Shown: positions 1 to 27,751 of the stretch, in pieces | Layout of the letters: every line of letters starts with the position of its first letter | Position numbering within the stretch: the first letter of the stretch is position 1 | Notes under the pieces: generated by a model | The model's input: only the letters and a program-made list of their open reading frames with translations | Told to the model about the DNA's origin: nothing | The model's database searches: none | NCBI GenBank assembly: GCA_003614675.1 | Contig: ML002393.1 | Location: 1 to 34,311 of the forward strand | Length of the DNA: 34,311 nucleotides | Reading direction: 5' to 3' | DNA from: Dimargaris cristalligena | Taxonomy: Eukaryota | Translations under genes and position numbers: made by a program

Positions 1-560
1 GGCTAGGCCCCCTATACAATGAGTTAAGTTATTCGCCGCTAGTTTGGCCCTAAATTTATCGGTGTATTTCTCCATTATCGCATGTATGTTTGCCACTGAT
101 TAGGCTGGTCTATAAACTTACGCGACTTCAGCAGCCCTAGATAGTGGCTAATTGCGAATGTACATTTCATTGTCATGGCAACAAGGCGAGTTAGCCGAGG
201 AAAAGTACACTCAATGACTAGGTAAATGGTATGGGCATAAAATGATGGCTCTCTTTACCTAATTTCACTAACCTATGCCCATCGTATCTGCTTTCGCACT
301 ACAGAGAATGCGTACTATACACTAATATCTAAAATAGAGCAGTTCAAACTACTATATTATACAATATAAAGGGGATTGGTCCGTTGTAACCATTGCACAA
401 CCATGGGTAGAGCGGCTGTTATCCTCCCCATGTCCTCCGATATTGTTTTTTTTCTGAAGGGGGGATGCCAAAATAATTCCCCATTGTGAAAATTGTTCAT
501 CCCTTCCGCCCTAGCGGACACTTGAATAAGCCGACTAACTAGGCCAGTCTCGAAAAATAG

Positions 561-570
561 TATATATAAG
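561..570 (+). promoter_or_regulatory. TATA box of paralog 1 (equivalents at 3928-3935 and 7211-7218)
   Basis: TATATATAAG / TATATAAG / TATAAATA at the aligned position, 190-200 nt before each ATG. Confidence 0.65.
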
Positions 571-752
571 TGCCAGGATTTCCCTGTTTACGCAAGTGTG
601 CCCCTTCATCCCCTCTTTAACTTATCAATAGATTCTGTTATTTACGATTCTATTTCCACTCTTGGAACAGGTCTGTTTATGCATTTATATAACTTGCATT
701 TGAGTTAACTACATTTTCGCTGGTCGGACCCTCTTCACCCCAACGTTAAGCC

Positions 753-1664
753 ATGCACATTTCCTATGCTGCTTTTCTTACACTAACTCTGGCCACGGGG
801 TATACCGTTGGTGGACGTCTTCGCCCACAAGCAGACACTGACAATGTCCCACTGGCATTGCTTTTAAACGGGCTATCGGGAAATTCACTGGACTCGGATT
901 TCCACGCTAAACCCTGGGGATTGTCGAATATTGACGAAGAAAGCGATGATAAACGCAGCGCGTATGGTGGCCAACGTCCTGAGATTGCGTTAGAGGACAT
1001 GACCTCGGAGTTTGCTGGGGGGGTTAGCAGCCATTATCTCCAAGCCGGTGATTCCCTTGAATCCGTATATTACGATGCACTCGATAGCAGCGCTTATCCC
1101 GAAGGTGTGAGTGAAATTAACGTCCAGCACTTCAATGACAATGGCTCCGGTGATAAAGAATCAGCACAGTCGTCCACAGCAACTACCCCCTCCCATTCAC
1201 AGGGCTGGCTCACCGATACTCCTGTAGGGCGCGAAAGTGAGATTAGCCTGGGAACTACCGTCAGCCAAATAATTAGCCAGATGCCTGCCCCGCCCAATCA
1301 CGAGATCAATCTCCATTCGCAGCAAATTCCCGACCATTGCCACACGTACCTCTCTCCACCGACTACGCCCAGTTCATCCGCGAACCTCGACATTGAAGAG
1401 AACAGCGGTACCCCGGTGATACCGATGGCTGGCAATGAAACGGTCAAAACGTCCATTAATGCCCGCCTCCCGAATGCGATCCCCCTACCTAAATCGACGC
1501 GTGGGGAGGAAAGGAAGCAAAGCAAAGATTTAGATCAAAAACCTGGTGGTTTGCGGGCTTGGTGCGTCCAACATAGCCGGGCTGAAGGCTGGCATGGTTG
1601 GACAGACCGGCGTAAGAACTGGATTAAATCACAAAAGGATAGAATCAAAAATAGTAGAGACTAG
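753..1664 (+). CDS. Secreted disordered orphan protein, tandem paralog 1 (303 aa)
   Basis: Intronless ORF; hydrophobic N-terminus (MHISYAAFLTLTLATGYTVG); acidic Ser/Thr-rich body; basic Trp-rich C-terminus; clear paralogy to 4128..5042 and 7409..8398; TATA about 190 nt upstream. Confidence 0.88.
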   Translation: MHISYAAFLTLTLATGYTVGGRLRPQADTDNVPLALLLNGLSGNSLDSDFHAKPWGLSNIDEESDDKRSAYGGQRPEIALEDMTSEFAGGVSSHYLQAGDSLESVYYDALDSSAYPEGVSEINVQHFNDNGSGDKESAQSSTATTPSHSQGWLTDTPVGRESEISLGTTVSQIISQMPAPPNHEINLHSQQIPDHCHTYLSPPTTPSSSANLDIEENSGTPVIPMAGNETVKTSINARLPNAIPLPKSTRGEERKQSKDLDQKPGGLRAWCVQHSRAEGWHGWTDRRKNWIKSQKDRIKNSRD

Positions 1665-4127
1665 AGATTTTCGACTTTGTACGCTATTCCTGGCTTTAAA
1701 TGTATTTCATTCCCTAAGAACCGACTTGCCTTGGGCTGCATTCTACGATAATACCAATACCAATATTGATATTGTTACATCCGCAGCCAATACAGAGTCA
1801 TACCCCAGGCGTCAAGGTAGCGAGACCTTAGTGGACCCCATGGACTCCACTGATACTGGTGTTCCAGCCGCAGCATCTTTGACTGAGGATTCATTCCAAC
1901 TACATGTGTCTAGCACGGGGACCCCTGGTGAATTATCACCCTCTGAGGATACCGCTAATGCTGTCATCTAGAACACTTTTCCAGAAGGTCCGATGAACAT
2001 ATTATTAACCTTCCTTGGCTATACTGGATGCCTGTGACGATTCATATAAATAAGCATTGGGTACATACTCTTGTTCTTCAGTTTACTAGCGCTCACATCG
2101 CTCCTGCAAGTCCATATTACTTATACTCGTTCCTTAATAAAAACCGCTCATACTTCACGCTCTTTAACAATATCGTTCCCCCCCCAGACCCACACATACA
2201 AGAGCATACACACGCCTACACAAGTCCACTATAGCAGTGCAATATTTTACCGACTAGTTGTTTTAAACATAGTCAGATCCTACCATTCCCATCTCATGTA
2301 TCTATCACTCCAATCTGTGCCCATGTCTTCCTATAGCAATACAGAACACACAGTAAAACATTAGGTATTTTGATTTAAATGAGAACTTAAAGAGGTGAGC
2401 AGGGCGTATATCGACCCGTAACAAATTTGTGAACTGCTCCTAATGCTGCTGACTTGATTGCCCTTGTTCTGGGAGAGCTATTATAGGATACAGTGTGGTC
2501 GTTAGCCAGGGTCAATTATCCGGAACTTGGATGATCATCTAAGCCTAACAGCGCAAATTAACATACACGTGGGTAACAACAATTACTCGCCTAATCGATG
2601 ATACAGACGAATCCGAATTAAAAGAGAAGGCGAAATATACGTCATATCCGGTTTGGTATGTTTCAATATATATATATATAACAATTTTATACTCATATTT
2701 CAAATAATCTCCCCGTAGAAAAGCATGTTTACGGCCAGGTCGAAGGGTGCTAAAATTAACAAACAATAGTCCTTTAACCACTAGTATATTTAGCGAAACA
2801 GAAATTCATAATTTAATACAGTTGTAATTCAAAAAGGTACAGCGCATTGAAAGCCCTTTTGGATGACTTTTATTTAAACGATAATACTCCAACGAGCAAC
2901 AAATGCCGAAAGAATTCAAGAATATTATTGACCAGCATTCCTTTAATAGGGCTTAGTTCGATACCGAATAAAAAACCATGTTGGATAAGTAGTGGATAGA
3001 GCAAAAAAAAATAGCAAAGGCCCAGCTGGTCAACATGTGGACTATGTCCCTACGTCCGATGCTTATAACGTTCCTCTTTCTGTATAGCAGCCCTACCCAC
3101 CAAAACCATCCACTATGCAATAATTAGAATTGTCCAGATGCGAAACTTCAGAAAGATACTTCACCAAAAATGGTTGGCCAAAGAACGGAGGTAGAATTCA
3201 ACGTCGTGTCTCGCCCAGTTCGACTGTCCTACTCGAAATGTCACTTGACAGTGAATAGGGTGCTACCTAATTGTGTGCCATCTGGAGTATAGGAGAAGAG
3301 CAGCGCCACTTCGTTATCCTCGACAGCAAAGTCCACTTCAACAGTCGGTTTTGGCCACCCGTTTTAGGCCGGGTCACCCATACAGTGAGTTAAGCTATTC
3401 GCCGCTAGTTTGGCCCTAAATATATCGGTGCATTTCTCCACCAGCGCGTCTATGCTCGCCACTAATTAGGCTGATCTATAAATTTACGCGGTTTCAGTCA
3501 CCTTGGATGGTGGCTAACTGCAAATGTACATTTCAATATCATAGCAATAAGGCGAGCTGGCCGAGGGAAAGTAAACTCAATGACTAGGCCAATGGTATAG
3601 GTATAAAATGATACCCCCTCTTCACTTTATTTCTCTAACCAACGCTCATCACATTTGCGGTCGCACTACAGAAAACGCGTACTATACACCGAGATCTAAA
3701 ATGTAGCAGTTCGGATTACTATATCAGACAATATAAAGGGGATTGGTCCGCTGTAACCATTGCACAACCATAGGTGGAGCGGCTGCATTCCTCCCCGTGT
3801 CTTCTCCGATATTGTTTTGGGGTGGAGAGCTCCAAAATAATTCCCCATTGTGAAAATTGTTCTTTCATTCCGCCCTAGTAGACACTCGTATAAGCCCAAC
3901 TAACTAGGCAGCTCTTGACAAATAGAATATATAAGTGTCAGGATTTTCCTGTTTATAAAATAGCCCCTCTACATTCTCTCTTTAACTTACCAATTGGCCC
4001 TCTGTTGTTTTTGACCCAATTCCGCTCTTGGAACAGCTCTGCCTTCGGAAATTTTGACCTTGTATTTGGGCTGCCTATATTCTGTCCGGTTGAAGCCTCT
4101 TTACCCTACTTACTCCAGCGTTAGGCC

Positions 4128-5042
4128 ATGCATACTTCCTACGCCACTCTTCTTTCACTGGCTCTGGCCACGGCGTATACCGCTGGTGGCAGTCTTCCCC
4201 CAAAGTTTAATATTGACGATCCCCCACTCGACTTTCTCCAAAAGGGGTTATTATCGGGGATTTTATTGAACCCACAAAGTGAGCCTGAACCCTGGCGCTT
4301 ATCAATAATTTTCGAAGAAAGCGACGATGAACACAGCACATTTGGCGGCCAACGTCCCCAGCAGGCGGTAGAGGGTACGGCCCCGGAGCTCGGTGGGACG
4401 GCGAGCAATAAGTATCTCCAACTCGGTGGTTCCCGTGAAACCATATACTACGACGCACTCGATAACAGCGCTTTTCCTACAACTCCGAGTAGTATCAACA
4501 CCCAGCCCTTGGATGACCATGACTCCAGCGATGAAGAATCGATCCATCCGTCGACGACAACTACCCCTTCCACTCTACGGGTTCATTTCCCCGCCAATTT
4601 AGCGGGGCGTAGAAGTAAGGATAGTTTAGAACTATCAATTAGGGAAATCATTAGCCAGTTGTCTCAACCGTCCTCTAACGATGCGCCTTCCTCTTCGCAG
4701 TTGGCGAGCAGCCTGTGCCCTGCGTACCTCTCCCCGCCGATTACGTCCAGTTCATCCGCGAACTTTGACGTTGAGGAGAACAGTGATACCCTGGCAATGC
4801 CAATGGCTGACAATGAAATGCTCGAAGCCTACTACAATGCCCAACTACTGAATGAAACCCCCCAACGGAAGTCTACGCGGGAGGATAGAAGGACACATAC
4901 CGAACGTCTAAATCAAAGGTTTAACGATTTTTCGACCTGGTGCGATCGGCATACGCGGGCAGAGGGTTGGCACGGCTGGAAGGGCCGGCGCAAGGGCTGG
5001 ATCAAGTCACAAAAGGATAAAATCATCAATAGTAGAGGCTAG
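4128..5042 (+). CDS. Secreted disordered orphan protein, tandem paralog 2 (304 aa)
   Basis: Colinear with paralog 1 along its whole length (signal peptide, LSIIFEESDD, IYYDALD, YLSPP, RAEGWHGW, WIKSQKD). Confidence 0.88.
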   Translation: MHTSYATLLSLALATAYTAGGSLPPKFNIDDPPLDFLQKGLLSGILLNPQSEPEPWRLSIIFEESDDEHSTFGGQRPQQAVEGTAPELGGTASNKYLQLGGSRETIYYDALDNSAFPTTPSSINTQPLDDHDSSDEESIHPSTTTTPSTLRVHFPANLAGRRSKDSLELSIREIISQLSQPSSNDAPSSSQLASSLCPAYLSPPITSSSSANFDVEENSDTLAMPMADNEMLEAYYNAQLLNETPQRKSTREDRRTHTERLNQRFNDFSTWCDRHTRAEGWHGWKGRRKGWIKSQKDKIINSRG

Positions 5043-7408
5043 AGTTATTCGACTTCATACGTTATCCCTGGCTCTTCATGGGCGTTATTCCCAAAAAGGA
5101 GCGACTTGGTTTCGGCTATATGATTCAATAATACTGACTCCCTTCCCCCACGAGCGCATTATTACGGCAATGCATCATTTTCGCCTTTAGCTGTTGGAAA
5201 TATAGCCAATCCTTATCACCGCCTTCTATTTCTAAGATATATCCCTTACAACCGTACCCACTCTAGTCCATAGCAATGCAGGGTATATAATAAACCCACA
5301 ATCATTTTTGAAATGATGACAAATAACCCGTAGATATGTCGATTTAAATGTAAAAAAGTGATAGTTGATAGGTGAAAAGTGGTGGGCAACGTTTGGGGAA
5401 CAGCAGCCGAATTCATAACGGGGTAGTTCTTGGAAAGTGGTCATTGGCGGTAGGCGAGCGGGGGGTCCTCCTGGGATTGGACTACCTGATATTCGTGAGC
5501 GGTTTCATATAGCCCAATAATGAACCACACAGACTGTGAATGAAAGATTGGCCCCGGCCCAATGTGGCTCACGTCCACTACCATACATTGGTATGTGCGT
5601 ACAAGGTCCGAGCCGGAAAAAAATTGAAGGGAATAGATGAAAACCAATTGTTACACGAAAAGAAAAAGCCTATTCAAAGGAAAACAATACCACGAAGGGC
5701 TAAGGGAGGCGTGAAGTGGACCGAGAAGGGGCGCCCTTAGCCCAAGTGCAATCGCCGAGTAGGCCTAATATCCAAAATGCCTATACTGTCGCCTATCCAC
5801 TTGAACTACAATGCACCACCCGAAGAACAATGAACGGCTACAATTCCAATCGACCATACTATACGACCCGGGTTAAAAATTAGCAAAAAAGTACACGACA
5901 TCCCGGCCGGATGATATCTTTGTAAATTGGCATTGAACTGCGTCAATTTCGGACCAGCTGTGTAAAGTTTTAAATAGTCTGGGTTAGTGCTCAGTGGCGA
6001 GAAATTTGTTTCCGACCAGTGGAATTGGCCCCATCCAATGGGGTTTTCGTTATTAAGTATGGTTGAACCTCCTCCATATGGGAGAAGTTCATCCAAGCTG
6101 TATAACGAAAAATCCATTAGATTCAGCCAATATTACTAGTGAAAAATACATTTCCCATATATTTTCCCATACACGTATAATGAATACCCTTATATAGCTG
6201 GGCCGAATTTCACCCATATTGACTAGCATCCCTCCAAATGGCCTCCACGCGATATAAATGTGAATTCTGGATAAATGGTGGATTGCGAAATAAAAAATGG
6301 TATAGAGCCGGGGGCCAACAAGCGGGGTATGACTCTATCTTCGATGTTTTTGGCAGGTTTGCTAATGTATAGAAGTCCAACCCACCAGGACCGCCCGATA
6401 GATACAATAATTGGAGGCCTCCGACTGCGAAATCAACCCCCCAAAAAATATTCCAACAATAGCTAGCCAAAGAAAGGGGGTTGAATTCAACACTGTACCT
6501 CGCCCAGTTCGACTGTCCCACTCGAAATGGCACTTGGCAGTGAATAGGGTGCTACCTAATTGTGTAACACCTGGAGTATAGGAAAAGAGCAGCGCCATCT
6601 CGCTACCCTCGACGGCGGAGTCCACTTCAACTGTCGGGTCTAGCCACCCGTTTTTTTGGATTAGGCTTCATTGAGCGAGTTGAATTATTCGACACTGGTG
6701 TCGTCGTAAATGTATCGGTGTGTTTCCCCTTCCTAATACTAACTATACTCACCACCACTTGGGCTGGTCCATAGTTTAACGTGTCTTTGGTCGCCCTGAC
6801 GTACGCCTGAGATCGAATAGATATTTTATTGGTATGGCAAAGAGGCGAGTTGAGCGAGGGGATGTAACTATAATGGTTAGGTCAAAGGTATAAGTATAAA
6901 ATGATGCCCTTCTTCCCTTATTTTGGCTAACCAATGCCTATCGCATAGTGTGTTGCACAATAGAAACCACGTACTGCATACTAACGTCCAAGGTGCGGTG
7001 ATTCCAGGATACCAGGTTGGGCTGTATAAAAAGGGATTAGGTCGTTGTAACCTATGTACAACCACTAGCAGAGCAGCTGCCCTCCTCCATTGCTTTTTTT
7101 TTGGAGGGTGAGGGTGCCTAAAAAAATCACGAATACGAAGGCAGTTCCTCCCTTCCGCTCTAGTCGACACTCGAATTAAGTTCACTTAATAGGCGAGGCT
7201 CAAGAAATAGTATAAATACCAGGATGTCCCTGTTTATAGTATAGCACCATTATATTATATTTTTAACTTATCAATAGTCACTCTGTTATTTTCAATATTT
7301 TCACCTCTATTCCACCCTTGGAACAGGTCTGTCTTCGCATTGGCATTACTTGCATTCGGGCTGCCTATATTTTCTTCAGCTGAACAAGCTTCACTCCAAC
7401 GTTAAGTC

Positions 7409-8398
7409 ATGCGTATTTCCTACACCATTCTTCTTTCACTGGCTCTAGCCACGGGGTATACCGTTGGTGGCTGTCTTCCCTCACGGTCTAAGCGCTACAC
7501 TGTCCCGCTCCCCAGTCTCACCAATGGTGAAGTGGAAAATGCTCTGTTATGCCGTTCTCCGATTGATGCTACGTTATCAGTCATTCACGAAGTGAGTGAG
7601 GATGACCTCAGCACGTATGGCGACCAAAACCCCGAATCGGCGGTAGAGGACATGGCATCGGGATTCGTTGAGGAGTTGGGCCATGGTGATATCCAGGCCG
7701 GTGATTCCCGTATAACCGTATTCTACGACGCACGCGGTGAAAGCGCATTTTCCAATGCTCTAAGTGACAGCAACTCCCAATACTTGGATGACAATGCTTC
7801 CAGCGACGATGAATCAGTCCATTCGTCAAACAGCATTACCCCTTCTTCCAGTCTACAGGGCCATTCGCCCTACCTCCTAGCAACACGTGAAAGGCTGGAT
7901 AGGGCCCGACCTGTCATCACGAAAATAGCCAAATCGCGATCTCTCCCGCTCATTACCGATATTCCGTCCCCTTCCCCGTCGCAGCTAACGAACAGACCTT
8001 GTCCCTGGTACCTTCCTTCTCCGACTTCGTCCAGTTCTTCCACGAGTGGCAGCGACGAGCCGAACAACAGCGGTGGTAGCCACGATTTAATGCTGAAGGC
8101 GATGGACGAGCAATTTTTTGAAACCAGCCAAGGTCGACTCCGGAAAGCCCCCCTCCAACCGAAATCGTTTCGGGCGGAGGCAAGACACCTACTCGAGAAT
8201 ACCAAGCAAAGGTGTCATGAGCTTGAAGAATGGGGCAAGCTACATTCTAAGAAAGAGGGCTGGCAAGGCTGGTCGGAAAGACGCAGAAACTCGGTGGCTG
8301 GGTCTGTCAACAAAATGGTGGTTAAGCCTGTCAGAAAAATGGTGGATGGCCTCGACTGGAAGATTTCGGCCATGCAAGCTAACAATAGCGGCTTTTAA
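7409..8398 (+). CDS. Secreted disordered orphan protein, tandem paralog 3 (329 aa, most diverged)
   Basis: Same signal peptide (MRISYTILLSLALATGYTVGG) and motif order: LSVIHEVSED, GDSRITVFYDA, WYLPSP, EGWQGWSERR. Confidence 0.87.
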   Translation: MRISYTILLSLALATGYTVGGCLPSRSKRYTVPLPSLTNGEVENALLCRSPIDATLSVIHEVSEDDLSTYGDQNPESAVEDMASGFVEELGHGDIQAGDSRITVFYDARGESAFSNALSDSNSQYLDDNASSDDESVHSSNSITPSSSLQGHSPYLLATRERLDRARPVITKIAKSRSLPLITDIPSPSPSQLTNRPCPWYLPSPTSSSSSTSGSDEPNNSGGSHDLMLKAMDEQFFETSQGRLRKAPLQPKSFRAEARHLLENTKQRCHELEEWGKLHSKKEGWQGWSERRRNSVAGSVNKMVVKPVRKMVDGLDWKISAMQANNSGF

Positions 8399-13896: not shown

Positions 13897-16412
13897 TCAC
13901 CCGGAACCGCTACCTTCATCTTCCCCCAACCCCCGTCGCTTCCGCCGCTGTTCAGCAATGAGGGTCTGGGCCACGGCCAATTCGGATGAATTCAGTTCCT
14001 GGGTAAGCACCGATATCGCCAATATAATATTGTTGTTCTAAAATAATAGTATATATATATAAGGCGTTGGTAAATTGGTACATGTGATGCAATCCAGCCC
14101 ACATAATGGATTAAATTAGTACGCTAATCAATGGGCCATCTAAAAGCGTAATAATGATTGCCCGGCGTAAAAAGGCTAGGCGTTACTAAATCCACAGTGT
14201 CCATTCTGCCGATAGTATAGTATAACCACCGGATAATATATATATTACGACACACACACCTACACCCCCCCCTGATGATATATAATACCCCGGGTACCTT
14301 GACACCATTGGCCCGAATTTCCCTTCCCTATTTACCAGTCAACTCCCCGTATTCATTCCACTCGCAGCCGTTTCCTTCGATTCAGCATCACTCACCCCTA
14401 CCCCCATTCCACCCACCCACAGCTGTTGGGAATGAATAGGTAAGTAGTCCCGGCTTGGCGCATACTCATGCAGCTGGGGTATTGGTATAAGTATAGGTAT
14501 AGGAAGCAGCCGTCCATGGTTAGGGTTAAAAAAATACTACTACTACTGCGGGGTATAAAAACGGCAGAGGGAAATAAATGGGAGCAAGTTGCGCGTGGTG
14601 CGGGCAGGCACAAGGGTAAAAATACCAGCCCCTGTTTTACCCACATTCATCTCCGCCCACTACCCCAAACTCGTACTACAGCCCTGGTTGCTGGTTTCGC
14701 TCATATCCGACTGGGACTAATATGAACCGCACCTACAAATATAGGCATTTTCCTCTTCCTCATCCTAAGCACCTCCCCCCTCCCTCCCGCACCACTGGAC
14801 AGGGGGGAAACAGAAAATATTCCTCCCTGGAAATCTATCACACACTCTTACATATACACACACATGCCCTCTCTCTCTCTCTCTCCCTCCATCTCCCTCC
14901 CTGAACCAGCATCCCTTCCCTGGCTGTAACGCAAGGCTTAGGGGGAGCGACACCGAACGATAAAAAACCAAACCCTCAGGCATCCCCCAAAAAGAGAATC
15001 GGTAATGATGAAATAAATAGATGAAGCATAAAAAGCCTTGGCACGTCTACCTTAATAGTACCCTTGCGTGCAGTCGGCATAGAATTCGGCTGACCCGGAA
15101 CCGAGGGATAAGAGACGTCGCCAGTCACTCCGGGATGGGGGAGGCCGAATGATTTTACGGTGGTGGACGGGGGAGGAGGAGGAGGAGGAGGAAAGCTTGG
15201 CCGGGCCTGATCTGCGCCAAGCTGATCAAATTCAGGGGATAAACAGGGTGACGTCTCCGTAGGGTGGACACGAGTTGACGATATGGTCACTGGTCGTCCG
15301 TGGATTTCTTGGTTAGTGAACGTAGCCGAGGCCCTAGTTACTTGTCTGGTGGTCGTGGCAGTAGTAGTGGTGGTGGTGGTGATGAAATGGGCATGCACAT
15401 TCCGCCGTGTATCTCGGGATGGAGTCTGGGCAGGCGGCTGGGGTGGAGTAAGTCCATAGGGGCGGGCTGTCTTAGCATCGATAGGTTTGGAGACAGGAGG
15501 GGCCTCTAAGGGTATGGACGGATCCGTCAGCCAGTTAGAAATAGCTTGGCCCAAAATATAAGAGGGGTAATTGAAAGAAAAAACGGGGTGTTGGTAAGCA
15601 GGAGGCTGGACCCGGGCCAACGCATGGTTATGCATTGGTGAGCTGGAGGTATGAGGCTGGATTGTTCTGCTAAAGGGGATACTAAAGTGCAAACCGGCTG
15701 CTTGTCTGTGGTTCCCAAAGCAGTTGGCCAAGGCTATCTTATTACATGGGTGGGTGGACTTACATTTTCCGTCTAGACGCACAACCTGCGGTAGATGGCG
15801 GTGAATCCATTGCGTATAAGCCGGAACCAGGGCCTTTGGATCCGGAGTCGGAGTCGGAGTCGGAGGTAAGTTCTGCCAGGGATTACCAACAACGTGTAAT
15901 ACTTGCAGCTGCTGCAATCCAGTCAATTCGAGTAGAACCCGGAGATCTTTTAACCAATTGTAACTAACGTAGAGCTCGTTTAGAAAATGACAGCTGGCTA
16001 GCCCACGTAGATCGGTGAGATGATTATGGTTTAGACATAAAACCCGGAGTTGGGCCAACGGACGCAGGTGCACCACACTCGTCAAACCACGACCACTGTC
16101 CGGGTAGTCAACCGGGTGCAGATGGATATATCAAGTGATCAAAATATACACGCGGCTGTTTAGCATCGTCGGAAATAAAAGGGTCTACATTCAACCGGAC
16201 CCGCGGGCACATCCTGCACCGAGTCACCGCCCTCTAAAATGAATTGGTTATATTGCTGGGCCTCCTTGGGAAAATAAGCGGCCAAGCCGGGCTGATGTGC
16301 GCCGCCTCTGTACATTCCCATGCCTTTCCGCTAATACTTACCGTAGACTCAGCCGCTGTAGTTCCGGCGGAGGTGGGGGGCGGCGGGTGTCCTTAAACCC
16401 AGCGACGTGCAT
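13897..16412 (-). CDS. Leucine-rich-repeat protein with Pro/Thr-rich region; firm exons 16412-16342 and 16095-15764, probable last exon 14037-13897, middle exons unresolved
   Basis: LQRLSLR|GRGLTSV joins in frame. LRRs LRVLCLNHNHL, LNELYVSYNWL, LQVLHVVGNP, and an LRR-cap-like YTQWIHRHLPQVVRLDG followed by GTAAGT. Linkage of the 3' exon is inferred. Confidence 0.6.
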
Positions 16413-18031
16413 AGTAGTAGCTACTCAGCCAAAGTGTATAAAAGTATAATATGGGATTCAGTCGTAATCACCGGCTCCTTCGATGGAATCAACACTCGGG
16501 CATCTCAATAGACGAACACTGAACACTCATTATCATTCTCGGTTTACCTTAAACAGATGGTTACGCCGGAGGAGGAGGGACGCAGGAATCGCCTTGAACG
16601 ATTGAGGCAGGGTGGAAAAGGAGGGAGAGGATAGGGTTCAGTCACCAGCTACTGGGTGGTTAACAATCAGCGGCGACAGCGGCGGCGTCGACGGCAGTGA
16701 GAATGCAGGAGGTCACCTGCAGAAAGGTTCGGCGATGGAATTGATGAGCATGTCGGAGTTAGGCGGATGCGGTGGGATTTGGATATGCGATAATGAATAG
16801 AAGGCAACCCCGCCTTGCAGTAATGAACTAAGCGAAAAAAAAACCTGTATGAGTTCCGAGGTATTCTCTCTGGAATCCTGGAGTCGGTCAGGCTATAGTA
16901 CTAGATTACAATGGTTCGGACCTATGAAATAGACTCGCCACCCGCTTGACCCATAACGTCAGTCTTGTGTAAACGGCGATTGGCTTTTTTCTTTAGTTAA
17001 TGGGCCCTACCACTCTACTGGTACTCATGGCTCCTGTAAAAAAATCGAACTGAGCTACAATTGAGTAATGGTCTATACATTATTTTCGCTAATGCAAAAC
17101 GGCAATGAAATCGACCCGGGATCCCATTATGTTCACTGAATATGAAAGTGAAGTGAATACAGACAAATATAGGGATATCCTCTTAGCACTGGGCAATATA
17201 ACCTCAATAAAGGTACCATGGGCCTGGTTGGGAGTAACCTGGACTAATTTGTTGGTTAGAAATGTATTGGAAGCTCAGTCCTTCGATGGTCGTCTTGGAA
17301 TGGTATTCAATTAGAGGCTCTGGGGGCAATAATGTAACAATTGTGGTTATTGTACGTCTACAAGTCACCAACCTCATCATCTTGGTGTAGGCACGGCCGA
17401 CTGGTAATTAATGAACAAACTCGGTCTGATGTATGGGACTGTTTAAATCTATAGGTTCGATTAAAGGATCGCGGCCATGATTCGATGATTTACAGAGTAT
17501 TCGTGTTATATATACTGTAATACTCAGGCTGGGTTGGCGTTTGGGCGTTCAACAGTGCTGTAACGGGGAGAAATCGCACCCAAGTTCGGCCATCTACACC
17601 GATACCCCCTAAATTTCCAAAGATTCAGGTTGGATGATCCAAGTTTCGGAATACAGTTTGTTGCCTAGGAGCTGCATTAGCTTTGGGAAGCAACCAATGT
17701 CTTGGCTTATAATGCTGCCAAAGGATACTATGGCCTATACCAAATTACGTTGAGGTGGGTTGGGTAGATAGTCCTCCTGTAGGAATTGCTCCTGCTGGAA
17801 TGCGGCTGACTGAACCAACACATTGGACGTCAACATTCTCCTAGTCGCGCTGGCTCCGACTGACGTACCAAACCACCCAGCCCCATGAGCCCATTGAATT
17901 CACTATGCAATTACCTTTGCTCTCACAAGTCCTCATTTTAAGCCTTCTTCAATTCAGCATTCCTCATATCTTTTCCTTTTTTACCAGCCATCTTTAATTC
18001 TCCGCCCTTTCGGTTTAATCTTCTCCAGTCG

Positions 18032-19878
18032 ATGGCCTCCACCCAAGCGCCACCCGAAGGCTCGGCCCACAGCCATCGGCCCTACGCTAATCCCATCGAT
18101 CCCTCGCTGTCCCCCGATAAATTGGCCCAATTGAATCCCCTGCACAATGCCTTCGCCGGTTCCAGCGCGCTGCTCCAAGACCCCGCCAACGCGGCCCTGC
18201 TTCAAAACGGCGGTCTAGGCTACAGCCAGGGGTACTATACATCCGATCCGGGCTTGTACACGGGTCAGAGTGCCAGTCGGGGCCTGTTTAACTACGCCGG
18301 TATCCGTTTCCTCACGGTGGCTCTCTCGAATCCGTTTGAGGTGGGCCAAACTCTGCTCCAGGTGCAGCACTTGCCGAGTGACACGGAATTAACCGTAGAC
18401 GGCGTGGCGGCCCTACCCGAGAGTACTGGGGGGCGCGATGGAGGCTTCGATAGACACCATGTAAGTTTGATTAGCTAAGTTTCTAATTAATCCGATCCAC
18501 CATTGCATCTTGACAACTGCTTCGCACAATCGCTAGATTAATAGACAAGATAGTTTATTGATTTAACTCGGTTGTATTCCACCGATCTGGCTTTCCCTTT
18601 ATCTAATTTACCTCGTCGCAGGTCCCCGGTCCCGAAGACCCAGGCTACTACGAATACCTTCGCAATAATCCCCCCTCGGCCTCCGGAACCCCCCTTTCGC
18701 ATGCCTCCCTCACGCATGGCCGCCGCCGGGGGACCCCCCGAACCGACCACACCGGTTACTTTGTGCCCTCGGTCAGCACCCTAGATGATGACGGTACCCG
18801 CGCGGCCTATGAACTCGGTATCCTAGAAACCGGGGTATGGGGCACCATGCGGCGGCTGTACAATCACCCGCAGGAGGGCCTCCTGAGCCTGTTCAAGGGC
18901 CAGTTTACCGGGTGGGTCTGGGAAATGGCGCAGCTCTTTATCCAACCCACCCTGGAGGGCTACCTTAACGAGATGTTCAACCTCTACGACGACACCATTC
19001 CGCTGATGCACCTCGACCATGTGTGGCCGAATCTGAGCACGTTAATCGCCAGCAACGTCATTACCGGGGTGGCCCTGAGTCCCCTGGAACTGGTCCGCAC
19101 CCGGCTTATGCTGCAACCCGGGCAGACCAACCGGCAAAAATACAGCGGGCTGTTTAATGGTCTGAGTACGATTATGAGGGAAGAAGGAGGGTTGTGGGCC
19201 ATGTACTTTTCCACGGTGCACTTGATTCCCACCGTGGTTTTCCACTCACTGCGCCCGCTCTTCGAAAACACCGGCAGTCTGGTGGTGAATCGGGCTCTGG
19301 GCATCTCGAGCGAGGATACCCCTTTCACGTCCGCCGTGGCCCATATGGCCTATTCCATGCTGGAACTGCTGGTGGTGCTGCCGGTCGAAACGGTCCGTAA
19401 GCGCCTCCAGGCCCAGCCGCGCTATACCAAGGAATTCATGCTGACTGTCACCGCCGACCAGCGGGCCCGTTCGGCCTCCGGTAGTGGTAGTAATAACGGC
19501 AGTGGTGGAGCGGCCGCGGATTTCCGACCCTATATGACCAGTGTGCCCATTACCCCGGTGCCCTACACCGGCATGCTCAACTGTGCCTACCGTATCATTA
19601 CGGAGGAAGGTCGCTCGGCGAAACAAATCCGGGCGGCGCGCAAGGCTATGGACCCTTCGTTGAACTCTTCGAATAATAGCGGCCGCCATGACCCTCTGCA
19701 GGAACATGACGGCGGTGCCAGTCGGTTTAACCGTCGCCGACCCACCTCGGCCACTCCACTGCCCGTCACTTGGGGCCTGCGTGGTCTGTACCAGGGTTTC
19801 GGCCTCCACTGCACTAGTCATGTGGCGCTATTCCTGGTAAACCTGGTGGGACCCATTACCGTGGAGGAGGACTGGTAG
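18032..19878 (+). CDS. UGO1: Mitochondrial outer-membrane fusion protein Ugo1 / SLC25A46-like; exons 18032-18460, 18622-19878
   Basis: Degenerate carrier motifs NPFEVGQTLLQVQ, SPLELVRTRL, LPVETVRKRLQAQ, GLRGLYQG; N-terminal HRPY; GTAAGT..CAG intron restores one frame. Confidence 0.85.
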
Positions 19879-20630
19879 AGGGATAACCTTGCTTAATTTT
19901 TGGTATGGATTCCTGTGTTTTATAGTATCTTTTATTTTTATCTTCTTTATTATTTTATTTCGATAGGGTGCTGCTATTCGCCCCTTTTTTCAAAAAGAAA
20001 CCTTTTGCTGGGCCATTGAGTTGAGCTGGCTTTTTTAAGAATCTAAAATAGATGTTACATAGCGCTAAATTGAGACTGGGTAACTGACTGAAATTCGGTA
20101 TGTTCGAGAGTTACTGGGCCTGGGCATTGGTAAACGGCATCCCAATAGTAACTTGTCTCGGCTGGTGAAATAGAGTGCCTTTTTAAGCGGGGGGATTGTC
20201 TTTAAAGGCGATGTATTTAATCGGTGAGCTTCACTTAGATTTATGAAACTAGGAAATGTCTAGTAGTAGTGGTAATGGTAGTTGTTGGGTGTGGTTTGAA
20301 GTGAAGCCTATAGGTGCCCTAGATCCGGCTCCTAATCCGGACCACTTGGGGCTGATATAGTGAGGGAAATACATTACGGATCACGTGAATGGTAGGTAGG
20401 CTTCAAATTTCATTAGATTGAAGAGGAATGGCACAATATTTGGGATGCATTTTTTGAGAGGGGTCTATTTTTATGTGAAAGTTGTTCGAGACAACAGGTA
20501 GAAGGTATAAAGCCGAAAAGTGGCTCGCCCCACCCATCGATTCCACCTCTTTCGTTATTCGGGACATCGCCTGTCACATCCATCACATTCTATACCAACT
20601 TTACGGTTGCTATCCACTTCATCGACTCAA

Positions 20631-22364
20631 ATGGTACGTGCGAGTAGCCTAGACAAAGACACCGAAGGGAAACCCCATCCACTCGTCACCATACCCATCC
20701 ATCCATCCATCCATCCATCTATATATTCCGATACATGTGTACCGGCCAAGAGGGTCGATTCGGAACGATGAAACCGTCTCGATGGCATCCCAATCCCCCG
20801 CTTCACAATATCCGTAATAAGTACCAACCCTTCACGAGACTAACACTACGCCACTTCCTTTTGCTGATTCCCACTTAACCACTCCCCCGCATCGTCCACT
20901 TCTGTAGGCTCCCACTAAGCGCACTGGTAAGAAGGTGGCCCCCGCCCCTTCCGTGGCCCGTTCCAAGACCACTGGTCAGACCAAGAAGAACCCCCTCTTC
21001 GTGGCCAACCCCCGCATCTTCTCCGTCGGTAATGCCATCCAGCCCAAGCGTGACCTGACCCGCTTCGTGAAGATGCCCGCCTACGTGCGTCTCCAGCGCC
21101 AGCGCCGCGTCCTGAAGCTGCGTCTCAAGGTCCCCCCTGCCGTGAACCAGTTCACCAAGGTCCTGGACAAGAACACCGCCACTAACCTGTTCCGTCTGTT
21201 CAACAAGTACCGCCCCGAGACCCGTCTGGAGAAGCGCACTCGTCTCCGCACCGCCGCCGCCGCCAAGGCCGAGGGTAAGGACCTCCCCAAGTCCCCCAAG
21301 CCTTACTCCGTGAAGATGGGTATCAACCACGTCACTGCCCTGATTGAGGCCAAGAAGGCCCAGCTCGTCGTGATCGCTGACGATGTCGAGCCCCTTGAGG
21401 TAAGAACCACCCCCTTGAGTTGTGTGATATACCATGTGGTGGTGCTGATATTTTGCGAGTTGGTTTGATAATAGCTGGTGGTTAATCAACGACATTTTCC
21501 CCTCGTCAGTATGGCCTTTTTCGCTGGGGGGCTGTCCTCTGAGAGAATGGTCGCGCCTGGATCAGCTACATAATTGGTAGTTCCCTTCGAATTTATGCAT
21601 TCGATCCCAATCCCGACTGGTGATTCAATTACCATTGGTGAGGTTGGGATGTCCTTTCCCATTTTTCACCATTGGAGTCCCTCTTGGGACGACAGTGGCG
21701 TTGCGGAAGGGACTGGGGAACTATATCGCCTAAATATCGTTGGGTGTGTCGGAGGAAAATGAAAGGGGGTGGTGTAGTGGATTATTAGTTAGTGGGGTTT
21801 TCTTGCATGAACACCCCAATGCCTATTAATGCTATTCCCCCACCCCGTATCCTGGCTACCGACACATTAGAATAGTCGTCTCATCCACGCACTAATCCAT
21901 GACCCTTCGATACGGCCCGTTCATCAGAACTAGTACTTAACTCCGCGTCTATTTTTGGACTAATAGTGAGCAATGCTTTCCCCCCATTTTTTTTTGTATT
22001 ATACTGTATTTCTACTCGGTTACTACCACCACATCCCCTGTATATTATTGTATTGTGATAGCTCGTCATCTGGCTGCCCGCCCTCTGCCGTAAAATGGGT
22101 ATCCCCTACTGCATCGTCAAGGGCAAGGCCCGTCTCGGTACCGTCGTGCACAAGAAGACCGCCACCGTCCTGGCCTTCACCGAGGTCCGCGAAGAGGACA
22201 AGAACCAGCTCGCTACCCTGGTGTCCTCCATCAAGGCCAACTTCAACGACAAGTTCGACGAACACCGCCGTAACTGGGGTGGTAACACCATGAGCCAGCG
22301 TTCTCAGGACGCCAAGGCCAAGCGTCAACGCGAACTGGCCAGCTCCATCGCCATCCACGTCTAA
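20631..22364 (+). CDS. RPL8: 60S ribosomal protein eL8 (yeast L8 / human L7a); exons 20631-20633, 20908-21399, 22062-22364
   Basis: [67 protein letters not shown]-only first coding exon; strong codon bias. Confidence 0.97.
21468..21573 (+). ncRNA. Candidate intronic H/ACA-like hairpin in RPL8 intron 2
   Basis: ANANNA (ATAATA, 21468-73), lower stem gctggt/atcagc, internal pocket, upper stem gacattttc/gagaatggtc, ACA at 21568-70, 15 nt after the upper stem. No target established. Confidence 0.4.
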
Positions 22365-23586
22365 GATCTCTCATTATTTCCCCCGTTTTACTCGTTCGGT
22401 CTGCATGATCTTCGGAATGCCCACTAGTTGAGTCTAATAAACTGTCGTGGACGTATTTTGTATTTTTATAGGCTTGGTATCTGGTTGAATACATGTCTTT
22501 AGCAGGGGGGATATATTTAAACAGTTGGCTGTGGATTGTTGTGTTCCAAATTAGGACCCTGTATTCCGCGTTGGATTCATGAACGCTCTGTCGTAGGAGG
22601 GGGTTTACTGCTGTCGTGTGGATATTTGAGCGACACCTCCAGACTGTGCCCTCTAATTCCCACATACTTAAGTTTTCTATTTTGGCTGGAAAATAGGATA
22701 GTTGTGTTTAATAATGAAGGTTGGGGAGGGTGTGTAGTTGTTTTAGATGGAAGTATCCATTTCGGAATCGTATAGGCAAACCGTACCTGCCTTGTATTAT
22801 CTCCTTCTTGCTTGTGCGATGCTTAGCATTCCAGCGTGCTGCTTTGCTTGTAGCCCAGGAACCCAATGAGCGAGTTCCACGCTTGTTTTCCGAATAAACT
22901 GCAGCTCTCCATCTATATACCTCTATGGCTGAGACGGCAATACTACCCTAGTGATTCGGGTGAATCAATAATATACTGGAATCTTCTCCCATCCCAAGCA
23001 CCCGGCGGGACCAAATCCTTGTGTGAGTGATCAGAAAAGAACCCCTGCCTGCTCAGGTGGTTCCGAAACTCCGCATTAATTCACTCCCCCCTCCCCACAC
23101 CTGCAGCAGCAGACACCCATTTCCCTTGGGCTGAACGGGGGGGGAAAGAACGCTCCGCATATGCTGGCGTTCTTAAGGATCCCTCCTCCCGCGGTTCCCT
23201 TGATCCTTCGTTTCGGTTGTTTAATATTTTTTCGTTATTGCGTTGAGTTCGAGGTCCCATTCTCAAGGTAAGCAGGTGTTCTCGCTGGGGTCTGTGCCCA
23301 TCTACATATCTGCTCTACCACTGGACTATGCTATGCGCGGTTCTGGGCTGGCTACTCAGCTGCTCTGACCCTCATCTCGCTCTGATCTAACCTCCCCAGC
23401 CTTACCCGATCTCTGACTCTGCCCTTCCCCAGACGTTCCCCCCCATTTAGCGTCTTGGTCATCCCCTCGTTTCATCTTTGTTTTCTTCACGTACTGTCTT
23501 ATCGATCGATTTTCTGGTTTCGACCCGTCCCCGTTGCTGGTATTCTGTCTCGCTAACTTCGTCTGTTAACCGTACACGATCGCACT

Positions 23587-25683
23587 ATGCTGTCGGTCAT
23601 TGTCTTTGTCCTGGGCCTCTTGGCCGCGGGACTTTACTTCGCCCGCCCGGACCTGTTCGGTGCTGCCGGCTCCTCCAAGACCCGCTCGGGTCGCACTTCG
23701 GGGGGCTCCAAGCCCGCCAAGGACCAGAGCAACAGTGGTAAGAAGGGTAACACTTCCGCCCGAAGCAGCGGTAAGAACACCCACGCTTCGCCCAACGGCT
23801 TTGCCGACAAGACCAGCGTTTCCACCAAGAAGGTGAAGACCGCTACTGGTTCCGTGGAGGCTCCCGCCGCCGAGGCCAAGACCGCCACGAAGGCTAGCCG
23901 TAACCGCAAGAAGAAGGGTGGCGCTAAGAAGACCAACGCCCAGTTCGCGGCCAAGGCGGCTAGTGAATCGGAAGCCGAAGAGTCCGAAGAGGAAGTTTTC
24001 TCCTCTCGCGTTGCTTCGAGCAACCCCTTCGATCTGTTGGACGCGTCTCGCGCTGCCAAGTCGGCTAAGAAGGGTAGGAAGGCCCCCGTTTCGGACGCCC
24101 CCGTCGCCGCTAGCTTTAGCCCTGAATTGCCGTCCCAGGCCCACGCTTCGCTGCCCGCGACCACCGCTCCAATCAAGGCCTCCCGGTCCTCCTCCAGCTC
24201 CTCCTCCTCGCCCGCCACCGATTCGGACGGCTTTGTTCCCGTTAAGCGCGAAGGTGGTAAGAAGAAGGGCAGCCAGGTCCCTTCCAAGACCGCCGCTGCC
24301 CCTGCTGCCCAGCCCGCCCCGAAGGTCGTGGAACGTTCCGCGGAAGCCGAAATTGTGACTGCTGCTCCCGTCTCCGAGCCGGTCACCCAGGACCTCGCCA
24401 CCGGTGAATTGGAACCCGTGGCCGTCGATGCCCCTGCTTCTGGCGTGTCTACCGCTCAGCTGACCCAGCTCGAATCCGAATTGAGCCAGAAGAACGCCGA
24501 GATTGACGCACTGAACCGCCGCCTCCAGCAGAGCCAGACCGAAAGCCAGAAGGTGTCTAAGAAACTTCAGGACATTCAGAACCGTGTGTCCCACCAGGAT
24601 ACCGACCGCCAGGTCTACATCAACCAGATCAAGACCTTGGAGAACAAGGTCGAATCGCTGAATTACACCAACCAGCTGATGTTCAAGCAACTGGGAACCA
24701 ACAAGGAAGCCGAGAAATCCATGAAGCTCTCCAACGCCCAATTGGAACTTACTCAACAGCGCCTGCGCGAGAACGAGACCACCCTGCGCAACGAGATTGA
24801 CCAGCTCACTCGGGCCATGGATCAGCTCCGCAGCGAACGTATGTCCTGGTACACTGATAAGGACTCGACCAACCGCCAGATTCTGGACCTGCAGTCGAAC
24901 CACTCGGCTCTGATGTCCGAGCTTAACACCAGCCAGGCCACTATCGCCAAACTCGGTGCCGATATCGAGGCCAATAAGCATGCCCTCACCCAGAAGGAAC
25001 ACGCTATTGTGTCGTTGGAATCCCTCGTCCAGTCATTCAAGCAGGAAGCCGAGGACCACCGCAAATTCCGCGGAGAATACGAGCAGTTGCTGCCCGAATT
25101 CCAGACCCTCGAGGACAAGCACCGTGCCCTGATCCAGAGCCACCAGGAGATCCAGGCCCAACTTCGCGATGCCCAGGACCAGTCCTCCAGCCGCCAGAGC
25201 CAGGCTTCCAACGAAGCCGCCGAGCTGCGCCAGGAGAACAGTCGCCTCAGCAGTACCGCTGATGAACTCCACAAGGAGCTCGCTGAAATCAAATCGGCCA
25301 ACCAAGCTAAGCTTGGGGAAGCCGAGAGTCAGCTGACTGTCGCTGTTAAGACTGCCGAGAGTGCCGAAGCCACTGTCCAGCAGTTGAAGGATGAACTGGC
25401 CGCGGCCCGCCGGGCCCAGACTGACGCCCAAGTGCAGATTGACGAAGAGCGTGGCGCTGCCAAATCTTTTGAATCTACCCTGGAGTCCACCCGTGCTGAA
25501 CTGAAGGAGGCCGATGCTGCCCAGGCCGCTGCCAAGACCGCTTTGGAGTCCGCCACCGCGGCCGACCAGGCCAAGGCGGACCAGATCACCCAGCTGACCA
25601 AGGAGCTGCAGACCGCTCGCTCCCTGATTGATCTGCTGAAGACCAAGAAGGTCGAGACCGCTCCTGTGGTTGAGGCCGAGTAA
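23587..25683 (+). CDS. Signal-anchored protein with Lys/Ala/Ser-rich disordered region and long coiled coil (698 aa; kinectin/p180-like architecture)
   Basis: Long ORF with high-expression codon bias; N-terminal hydrophobic helix; heptad-rich E/Q/L/K region from about aa 290; upstream GTAAGC donor at 23268 suggests a 5' UTR intron. Confidence 0.85.
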   Translation: MLSVIVFVLGLLAAGLYFARPDLFGAAGSSKTRSGRTSGGSKPAKDQSNSGKKGNTSARSSGKNTHASPNGFADKTSVSTKKVKTATGSVEAPAAEAKTATKASRNRKKKGGAKKTNAQFAAKAASESEAEESEEEVFSSRVASSNPFDLLDASRAAKSAKKGRKAPVSDAPVAASFSPELPSQAHASLPATTAPIKASRSSSSSSSSPATDSDGFVPVKREGGKKKGSQVPSKTAAAPAAQPAPKVVERSAEAEIVTAAPVSEPVTQDLATGELEPVAVDAPASGVSTAQLTQLESELSQKNAEIDALNRRLQQSQTESQKVSKKLQDIQNRVSHQDTDRQVYINQIKTLENKVESLNYTNQLMFKQLGTNKEAEKSMKLSNAQLELTQQRLRENETTLRNEIDQLTRAMDQLRSERMSWYTDKDSTNRQILDLQSNHSALMSELNTSQATIAKLGADIEANKHALTQKEHAIVSLESLVQSFKQEAEDHRKFRGEYEQLLPEFQTLEDKHRALIQSHQEIQAQLRDAQDQSSSRQSQASNEAAELRQENSRLSSTADELHKELAEIKSANQAKLGEAESQLTVAVKTAESAEATVQQLKDELAAARRAQTDAQVQIDEERGAAKSFESTLESTRAELKEADAAQAAAKTALESATAADQAKADQITQLTKELQTARSLIDLLKTKKVETAPVVEAE

Positions 25684-26330
25684 AAAGGGCACTCCGTCTT
25701 GCTTTTACTTTATTTCCCTTCAATCTACTCCCGAACTACCCCGATCTCAGCTTATACCCATTTGATTTATTGATTTATATCCCTGACCGTTGTTAATGGC
25801 TATGTGGCCTGTCATCCTCCTTCCCCTCCTAGTGTGGGGCAAGTATTGGAAGACTTCAAATATGGACAGGTGGGTGTATGGTAAATCAACTCTTAAAAGT
25901 GCGATTTACCTCCACCCATGTTGTTTTTTATAAATATATAAAAATAGTTTATCCTTAAGTAAATTCGCTAAGCTGGTCCATCCCAAGAGACTATTTTGTT
26001 AAAGGGTCAACTGGCTATCATATTCTTGCAATGTCAAAATATTAAAATGTAGTCTCCCAAAAAGTAGCTAATAAATCAATTTGCTCCATTTTGTATCGAA
26101 GTCCAACCTGTATTTCTTAGCGCTACGACCCTTTTCCTCGCCAGTCTAATATCACAGAGTAGGCTCAATCAACTAAGATCGGTCAGGGTTGGCGTTAAGA
26201 TGTCTTTTCATTATTCCCACTTGGGCCATAGGAAACGTCGATATCAATGGGAAATCTACAGAGTAAAGTAAAGCATGTATGGAAAATGTAAATAGAACCT
26301 TTAATAGTAAGTTGGTGTTTCATAATATGC

Positions 26331-27751
26331 TCATCGTTTGGCATAATCGATTTGGAAAGAGTGGTCGTTCAAAGTGGGTTGATCGCCCAACTGCTTCTTG
26401 ACATCGACGGCCTGGCTCTCCTCTTCGTATTCAACGAACGCGATATCCGATTTGCCTGGCACAAGACGAACTTCCATAAAACCATCGTATCTAATCGGGG
26501 TGTGTGTGCGTGGGGAAGAGGGGGGAGGGAAGGGGAATACAAATCAATCAAATGCAGGGTTAGTAACAGTAATAATATACATCTTTCAAGTCCAGCTGAA
26601 TTAAAAGACCAACGTAATTCAAATTTAGCAACCGGACCATGTTATATATACCGGTGGCGCGCATTCTACTTACTTTTCAAAAAGCTCACGCAGCATAGTC
26701 TCGGTGATTTCACTGGTAAGGTTCTGCAGAAATAGAATCTTGTTAGGCGGGGCCGGCTGTACAACAGCGGGAGGACCCGCCATGTGAGGCATACCAGGGA
26801 ATAGGGCGCCAAGCATATGGGGAGGTAGCACACCCGGTGGGTAGGCCATTGGTCCACTCCCCACCGGTGGCATACCTCCTCCGGGCATTTGACCCCCCAT
26901 CCCTTCGGCCCCAGGCGCTAAAGCGCCCGGAGGGACCATCGGTACACCACCACCACCCATGGCGAAGGCGTATGGGTTATGTTTCAGCATTTCCAAAGCG
27001 GCCTGACGTTCCTGGTCGCGTTTTTCCTTGGCTTCCCGATGTTGCTTTTTATAGGCCTGTACATGGGCTTCCACTTTGTCTTCACTGTCACCTTCGCCAT
27101 CTTCATCGCCGTCGTTGTTGGTACTGCCATCTTCGTTTGTTTCGGCCAGGGCTTTGCGCTTGACGGTACTAAACGAATTTGTCCGGGCGTATTGGACGAG
27201 AATGGGCTTATCGAATAAAATAGTTTGTTTAGTGGCCTCGAGGGCTTTGGTGGCAGCCTCTTCGTCTTCAAATACAACGAAGGCTTGGCCACGCATGCGT
27301 AAATTGCCGTGGGCGACAATTTCCACTATTTTACCGTGTGGTTCGTACAATTTGCGAAGCGCTTCCTTGAGAGCTAAAACAGGGGAGAGTGGGAGGTGAG
27401 TCGATCAGTGGAAATAGAGTATGGAGTATTGGTTAGATAGTATAATTTTGCCTCTTCCATCGAGAGGACTGGTATATAATGTTACTAGGAGGTAAGTAGA
27501 AAGGCATAAATAGATCTATATTGATAGGAAACGGAGGTCTAACCTGGTATTTTAATTTTCTCGTTGAGGTTGCTTAAATACAACGTGCTGTTGGGGACAT
27601 TGCACGGTGGGGCTTTGGGTAGCCGTGGCTTCATCAGAGTAGCGGGCATGGGCGGAAATGGGGCCGGGTAGCCGGGCGGCATGTAGGGCGGTAAGCCCAC
27701 CATGGGCATTGGCGGTGCCATGCCGGACGGGGTGCTGGAGGGTGGCTGCAT
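26331..27751 (-). CDS. U1A/U2B''-family two-RRM snRNP protein (U1A-like); exons 27751-27544, 27373-26674, 26490-26331
   Basis: PNSTLYLSNLNEKIK, VAHGNLRMRGQAFVVF, PPNKILFLQNL, EVRLVPGKSDIAFVEY; introns are phase-compatible; start codon is the first in-frame ATG. Confidence 0.92.

Follow-up and report, generated by a model that had tools for sequence, protein, structure and literature searches.

A PP2A-B56 docking pattern in three tandem, secreted-looking orphan proteins of Dimargaris cristalligena is most probably not used for phosphatase docking

The LxxIxE motif is a short linear ligand of the B56 subunit of protein phosphatase 2A (PP2A-B56; Rts1 in yeast). The ligands BubR1 and RacGAP1 are cell-cycle proteins of the cytosol or nucleus, and Cdk1 phosphorylates position 2 of their motif at an SP site. 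Viral proteins (Ebola NP, the HBV core linker and HTLV-1 integrase) are described as filling the same pocket by short linear mimicry (PMC10970375, PMC7327492); they are made in the host cytoplasm, so no topological barrier stands in their way. In the Toxoplasma gondii dense granule protein GRA18, the C-terminal domain contains two LxxIxE motifs, and once delivered into the host cell the protein is reported to bind the host's B56 (PMC6214654). Among filamentous pathogens, the (L)WY-LWY effectors of Phytophthora hijack the PP2A core enzyme, with the difference that a folded module replaces the B subunit and no LxxIxE peptide sits on B56, according to the description in 10.1101/2023.05.05.539533. 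Here we analysed a stretch of 34,311 nucleotides from the fungus Dimargaris cristalligena (assembly GCA_003614675.1, contig ML002393.1, positions 1 to 34,311; hereafter the window), in which three tandem paralogous genes encode proteins with the decapeptide LSxIxE[E/V]S[D/E]D. The match of this motif to the B56 docking rule is real as a pattern, but we infer that the motif most probably does not serve in PP2A docking. The explanation that we favour, in which we place about as much belief as doubt, is that the paralogs form an orphan family of secreted, disordered, acidic proteins with a hydrophobic-acidic block that fits the B56 rule without PP2A use.

The paralogs share with BubR1 and RacGAP1 the residues L1, I4 and E6, serine at positions 2 and 8, acidic residues at positions 7 and 9, and a disordered context. 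They differ from both in having N, I or V at position 3, a signal-peptide-like start and no basic patch. GRA18 is similar in that a eukaryotic parasite secretes it and its LxxIxE motifs lie in a disordered region (PMC6214654). It differs, when compared by description, in its experimental binding data, its known export route and its two C-terminal motifs, whereas the paralogs have one motif near the N-terminus and come from a fungus parasitic on fungi. The paralogs also resemble the lineage-specific, tandemly arranged candidate effectors of biotrophic fungi in their signal-peptide-like start, absence of a domain, orphan status and relaxed constraint. Unlike those candidates, they are neither small nor Cys-rich (303-329 residues, 2-4 Cys), and they are fully disordered by prediction.

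The three genes and the three copies of the motif were located as follows.

753-1664, forward strand: paralog 1, an uninterrupted open reading frame (ORF) of 303 codons plus stop
4128-5042, forward strand: paralog 2, an uninterrupted ORF of 304 codons plus stop
7409-8398, forward strand: paralog 3, an uninterrupted ORF of 329 codons plus stop; its C-terminal tail is longer
921-950, forward strand: LSNIDEESDD in the translation of paralog 1 (residues 57-66)
4299-4328, forward strand: LSIIFEESDD in the translation of paralog 2 (residues 58-67)
7574-7603, forward strand: LSVIHEVSED in the translation of paralog 3 (residues 56-65)

An earlier note on this DNA had named the three decapeptides, and the coordinates it gave translate exactly to those peptides. 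It had also described L, S, I and E as invariant, positions 3 and 5 as variable and the tail as acidic, and the alignment agrees in all three paralogs. The copies occupy identical alignment columns. L1, S2, I4, E6, S8 and D10 are invariant, position 3 is N, I or V, and position 5 is D, F or H. Position 7 is E, E and V, and position 9 is D, D and E, in paralogs 1, 2 and 3, respectively. The codons of three conserved residues differ synonymously (L, TTG/TTA/TTA; S2, TCG/TCA/TCA; S8, AGC/AGC/AGT).

Shuffling showed how often such matches arise by chance. When a single paralog was shuffled, an ELM-like match appeared in 6015, 7278 and 7248 of 20000 shuffles of paralogs 1, 2 and 3, and the strict pattern L..I.E in 1281, 1815 and 1141 of 20000. 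When alignment columns were shuffled, an ELM-like match aligned in all three paralogs was found in 239 of 20000 shuffles. The alignment contains three ten-column windows with at least six invariant columns, and three or more such windows occurred in 9640 of 20000 shuffles; the conserved block is no denser than shuffled columns and is not an unusual island of conservation. As a look-elsewhere test, 24 motif regular expressions were put through the same column shuffling. The 14 of them with a mean below ~0.06 sum to ~0.32 expected conserved matches, and a catalogue of a few hundred classes would be expected to yield one such match by chance. With clustering and the number of motif classes taken into account, the conservation of the motif, which is judged on three paralogs, does not exceed chance. 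A SUMO-interaction motif was also considered as a reading of the block and was rejected, as the pattern [VIL].[VIL][VIL] gave 0 matches aligned across all three paralogs.

The N-terminus of the paralogs resembles a signal peptide, as judged by eye and by simple hydropathy scales. In a 9-residue window, the hydropathy maximum of each paralog lies there (residue 6; 2.02-2.42). Residues 1-23 of the paralogs contain 13 invariant columns, and the alignment shows small residues at -3 and -1 ahead of an invariant GG, after which cleavage would be expected. AlphaFold2 (AF2) placed a helix at residues 5-16 of paralog 1. Elsewhere the hydropathy maximum is 1.36-1.79, no second hydrophobic stretch of membrane-spanning length is present, and the C-terminus is hydrophilic. 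These features suggest that the proteins enter the secretory pathway, in line with the earlier note, which treated the motif as a fungal, secreted case.

753-815, forward strand: start of paralog 1 that resembles a signal peptide (residues 1-21, up to and including the invariant GG), peak hydropathy 2.02

The signal-peptide-like start, seen in hydropathy, alignment and AF2 model, argues against the motif sharing the producer's own cytosol with B56. A protein that enters the endoplasmic reticulum cannot meet the fungus's own PP2A-B56, and a B56 role therefore needs delivery into a host cell. We regard it as very improbable that the proteins are instead cytosolic or nuclear in Dimargaris, where the motif would dock them to the fungus's own PP2A-Rts1 as clients or regulators. 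Such a location would agree with a hydrophobic core that is short and broken by Ser, Thr and Tyr, with the lack of a clearly positive n-region in paralogs 1 and 2, and with the Ser-rich, disordered composition that many phosphoproteins have; LxxIxE is also described as serving endogenous clients of fungal Rts1 (10.1101/2020.05.30.124925). However, hydrophobicity peaks in the first 21-23 residues, which are also among the most conserved stretches of the proteins, and the N-terminus ends in small residues before the invariant GG, as signal peptides do. Orphan, tandemly duplicated and fast-evolving genes would also be unusual among core phosphatase clients.

The mature body of the paralogs is acidic (isoelectric point (pI) 5.1-5.8) and rich in Ser, Thr and Pro, with 12-15% Ser and 2-4 Cys; paralog 1 has a pI of 5.26, 12.2% Ser and 2 Cys. 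Charge is segregated along the chain: the ~250-residue body carries a net -13 to -19, whereas the last 35-56 residues carry +5 to +7 (paralog 1: -18 over residues 22-268 and +5 over the last 35). Four of the 5-6 Trp of each paralog are in the C-terminal tail (4 of 6 in paralog 1). The acidic body is predicted to be disordered. The AF2 model of paralog 1 had a mean predicted local distance difference test (pLDDT) score of 41.0, with 256 of 303 residues below 50, although its alignment had three rows and low pLDDT is therefore weak evidence of disorder. The pLDDT was below 50 over residues 1-167, no secondary structure was modelled at 39-157, and the blocks that hold the motif (residues 51-70) had means of 34 and 41. 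The sole confident element was a helix at residues 283-301, where the 10-residue block means were 75 and 85 (residues 281-300).

1599-1655, forward strand: basic, Trp-rich C-terminal helix of paralog 1 (residues 283-301), after the invariant EGW.GW..RR

The favoured explanation can be laid out in a few steps. The proteins would be released at the surface of the mycoparasite or at the host interface, and they appear to evolve fast. The sequence LSxIxE[E/V]S[D/E]D was already present in the common ancestor of the three copies, and it is the N-terminal edge of a moderately conserved stretch of ~25 residues. We think it more likely that this block has been kept by descent, or for a role along the secretory route or outside the cell such as partner binding.

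Several points weigh against this explanation. With the motif named beforehand, the strict pattern aligned in all three paralogs in 17 of 20000 column shuffles, and the ELM-like pattern with at least two acidic residues in the next four did so in 4 of 20000. Among the 24 classes of the look-elsewhere test, the B56 motif is the least expected one that does match. Its defined positions are fixed, its wildcards are free and its L and S codons differ synonymously, which is the look of a used short linear motif. In sequence, two of the three copies hardly differ from human B56 ligands that have been validated. GRA18 is already described as a parasite effector that is secreted, carries LxxIxE motifs and binds B56 (PMC6214654). 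Secretion of the paralogs, in turn, is something that we infer from their N-terminal residues.

The fit to the docking rules bears on another reading, which we consider unlikely. The paralogs may be mimics secreted from the haustorium that reach the cytoplasm of the fungal (Mucorales) host, where LSxIxE and its acidic tail would fill the conserved LxxIxE pocket of the host PP2A-B56 (Rts1). By analogy with Ebola NP and Toxoplasma GRA18, such a mimic might be a competitive inhibitor or a scaffold that redirects the phosphatase. The rule used for yeast Rts1 candidates requires L/F/M at position 1, I/V/L at position 4 and E at position 6 in a disordered region, together with at least two D/E in the next six residues, as described in 10.1101/2020.05.30.124925. 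All three paralogs fit this rule, with 3, 4 and 3 D/E in the following six residues. In favour of mimicry, the motif is canonical and has an acidic patch in 3/3, and the segment around it is predicted to be disordered. Residues D/E or phospho-Ser/Thr at positions 2, 7, 8 and 9 are reported to enhance B56 binding (PMC10970375). Positions 2 and 8 are Ser in all three paralogs and an acidic patch is present; Ser at 2 and 8 with acidic residues at 7 and 9 also speaks for mimicry. The motif is close to known ligands as well. The validated RacGAP1 motif LSTIDES differs from LSNIDEE of paralog 1 at positions 3 and 7 only, and paralog 2 resembles the BubR1 KARD motif LSPIIEDS. In RacGAP1, an extra E after the obligatory E is reported to have raised the affinity (PMC8809670).

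Other features of the motif do not fit mimicry. A basic patch near the motif is described as an enhancer of B56 binding that is not obligatory (PMC10970375). No basic patch was found in the 15 residues before the motif; every paralog has two or three acidic residues there and a single K or R. Position 3 is never Pro (N, I or V), and because of this, phosphorylation of Ser2 of the Cdk1 type, as in BubR1, appears unlikely. The isolated motif peptide would probably bind B56 in vitro, which is not equal to function. The earlier note had called this the pattern of strong B56 ligands. That agrees with the Rts1 rule, which fits in 3/3, and with the enhancer features. The conservation, judged on three paralogs, fails the look-elsewhere correction.

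Several further points would suit a mimic delivered into the host. This type of motif works with fungal Rts1, as described in 10.1101/2020.05.30.124925, and expressed high-affinity motifs are reported to inhibit PP2A-B56 competitively (PMC7327492). The producer is haustorial, and GRA18 provides a precedent. The order Dimargaritales consists of haustorial mycoparasites whose hosts, Mucoromycota and Ascomycota, are parasitised by means of an appressorium and a haustorium, as described in PMC9866270, and the single-cell genome study PMC6784888 included D. cristalligena among its mycoparasites. The C-terminal tail, basic and rich in Trp, could in principle aid membrane interaction or entry, and the family is fast-evolving, tandemly duplicated and orphan. 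Against this, translocation, expression and binding are matters of supposition, the conservation among n = 3 paralogs does not exceed the look-elsewhere expectation, and it extends past the motif. Taken together, the B56 interpretation appears partly supported as a pattern, and on sequence grounds it would be a reasonable but low-probability hypothesis about a real orphan gene family.

The earlier note was correct that viruses mimic the motif, Ebola NP included (PMC10970375, PMC7327492). It knew of no secreted fungal example. A literature search on LxxIxE with effectors or fungi returned none among the matches listed, and the fungal LxxIxE papers among those matches concern intracellular Rts1/B56 clients. 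The statement needs qualifying in one respect, as the secreted Toxoplasma protein GRA18 binds B56.

The conservation does not stop at the motif.

951-995, forward strand: conserved continuation in the alignment, paralog 1 residues 67-81 (invariant S69, G72, Q74, P76, A79 and E81)

Alignment columns 61-90 have the lowest proportion of nonsynonymous differences (pN) of the central region (0.24, 0.24 and 0.28). As the sequences stand, ~15 residues of conservation past the motif would be left unexplained by a B56 motif of 6-10 residues. The block may therefore be looked at as a sorting, processing or host-uptake element that follows the signal peptide of a secreted family and is not a PP2A ligand. 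We consider this rather improbable. The RxLR-dEER sequence of oomycetes is an N-terminal effector motif and offers a positional analogue. The block, at residues 56-81, lies ~35 residues past the presumed cleavage site, directly after a variable linker; it is a short conserved hydrophobic pattern followed by an acidic run, and the conserved stretch exceeds a B56 motif in length, with pN in the central region lowest there. On the other hand, to our knowledge, no post-signal-peptide motif of this kind has been described for Zoopagomycota. Relatives from outside the species are absent from the searches, so no family-wide motif can be defined. The dibasic KR after the acidic tail is present in paralog 1 only, which leaves conserved Kex2-type processing unsupported, and this candidate was rejected.

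The family for which we favour secretion without PP2A docking consists of real coding genes under weak constraint. We take the paralogs as real genes because their frames stay open across 303-329 codons despite nucleotide divergence of 26-40% and because the pairwise ratios of nonsynonymous to synonymous substitution rates (dN/dS) among them are 0.57, 0.58 and 0.73 (dS 0.63-1.04), which corresponds to weak purifying selection. The end-to-end alignment of the three proteins has 83 invariant columns out of 331, and identity to paralog 1 is 49% for paralog 2 and 37% for paralog 3. A Pfam search of the paralogs found no family above the cut-off. The antisense ORFs over the motif (764-1000 and 4139-4444, reverse strand) were taken as mechanical; their position is not conserved in paralog 3.

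Self-BLASTN of the window showed that the genes are triplicated in tandem, with a repeat unit every ~3.3 kb. Positions 10-1695 matched 3377-5073 with 74.2% identity over 1725 columns, and 3164-4199 matched 6453-7480 with 71.6% over 1070 columns. The duplication includes 0.7-1 kb of upstream non-coding DNA, with 72-74% identity. TBLASTN of the window detected no further paralog copy, the other matches having E >= 1.7.

10-752, forward strand: duplicated upstream DNA of the tandem unit, non-coding; it contains a TATA-like TATATATAAG (561-570)

The upstream DNA of the three units (10-752, 3377-4127 and 6453-7408) is as similar (72-74%) as the coding parts, and it is more alike than the synonymous sites (proportion of synonymous differences, pS, 0.43-0.56). 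This suggests promoter constraint or gene conversion.

The paralog family is an orphan, restricted to Dimargaris in the databases searched. A profile search of 1,835,955,588 representative proteins returned four relatives at E <= 0.001 (P0001-P0004) and nothing else. Three of them are named D. cristalligena by their source and one is filed under another fungus, and all four are copies or partial copies of the paralog family. P0002 (D. cristalligena) is paralog 2 with one residue changed. P0004 is paralog 3 over the N-terminal 159 residues with one residue different, and leaves the ORF after 159. P0001, filed under Syncephalis pseudoplumigaleata (contig of 3,267 nucleotides), is paralog 1 differently modelled: compared with the plain ORF, seven residues are missing after residue 90 and the frame changes near the C-terminus. 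In both P0001 and P0004, the motif is within the part common to the public models and the plain ORFs. P0003 (partial, D. cristalligena) is a fourth paralog that begins only at aligned residue 100. No related protein was found among 740 candidates in a search of shorter proteins, and a search of the ESM Atlas with the paralogs gave no usable match. The sequence profile search of the PDB gave a single insignificant match (E 0.077), to the coiled-coil part of SbcC, which was taken as noise. The family is thus lineage-specific, has no known domain, is duplicated and is under weak constraint, all of which are effector-like traits.

Two observations on other sequence records concern these relatives. 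Window positions 614-3363 had 0 differing letters in run X6 (organism B) at a depth of ~5, against 332 in X1. The P0001 entry under S. pseudoplumigaleata looks like DNA carried over between projects and not like a shared gene. In X5, a contig of 956 nucleotides (record 17) has ~86% identity on 659-958, at the 5' end of paralog 1, and from there on matches paralogs 2 and 1 in turn (3850-4024, 4403-4474 and 1244 onward). A shorter record, X2 record 9, covers the first two pieces of this contig. The X5/X2 contig is consistent with the 5' half that the fourth paralog, P0003, lacks.

A very high-copy element was observed between paralogs 2 and 3, at ~6075-6220. The summed contig depth in the bin 5880-6143 was 78856 (X1), 37786 (X2) and 103750 (X5), with ~150-400 alongside. 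Many loose contig ends fall at 6075/6076, 6122 and 6219/6220, and an imperfect inverted repeat (6001-6077 / 6078-6154) is present at the element, which resembles a dispersed repeat. The Rfam and tRNA scans of the window, this element included, gave 0 matches each.

Further genes were recognised in the rest of the window.

14976-16085, reverse strand: leucine-rich repeat protein, an intron-split neighbour
18763-19878, forward strand: mitochondrial carrier, an intron-split neighbour
20935-21468, forward strand: ribosomal L7Ae family protein, an intron-split neighbour
23587-25683, forward strand: 698-residue coiled-coil protein, an intron-split neighbour
26670-27350, reverse strand: RNA recognition motif protein, an intron-split neighbour
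30031-30408, forward strand: ribosomal S19e, an intron-split neighbour
31424-31765, reverse strand: further small secreted-protein candidate, a 113-codon ORF with a hydrophobic N-terminus, several Cys and no Pfam family

The neighbours at 14976-30408 are housekeeping genes of an ordinary eukaryotic kind, and the paralog array therefore lies beside core genes and not in a repeat-only region.

If the paralogs were mimics delivered into the host, they would be the first case of a fungus mimicking a phosphatase docking site with a short linear motif. They would also provide the first molecular effector mechanism, with a testable effector-target pair, for a zoopagomycete mycoparasite, the Dimargaritales being poorly studied, and the phosphatase-docking mimicry of viruses and Toxoplasma would extend to fungus against fungus. 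If the motif is unused, the case calls for caution, as a motif of textbook quality in all available paralogs would be within chance given the number of motif classes and the few sequences. The compartment, here indicated by the signal peptide, would then need checking before any appeal to a cytosolic docking motif. In either case, what the locus shows is a tandemly triplicated orphan family of disordered, secreted-looking proteins in a haustorial mycoparasite.

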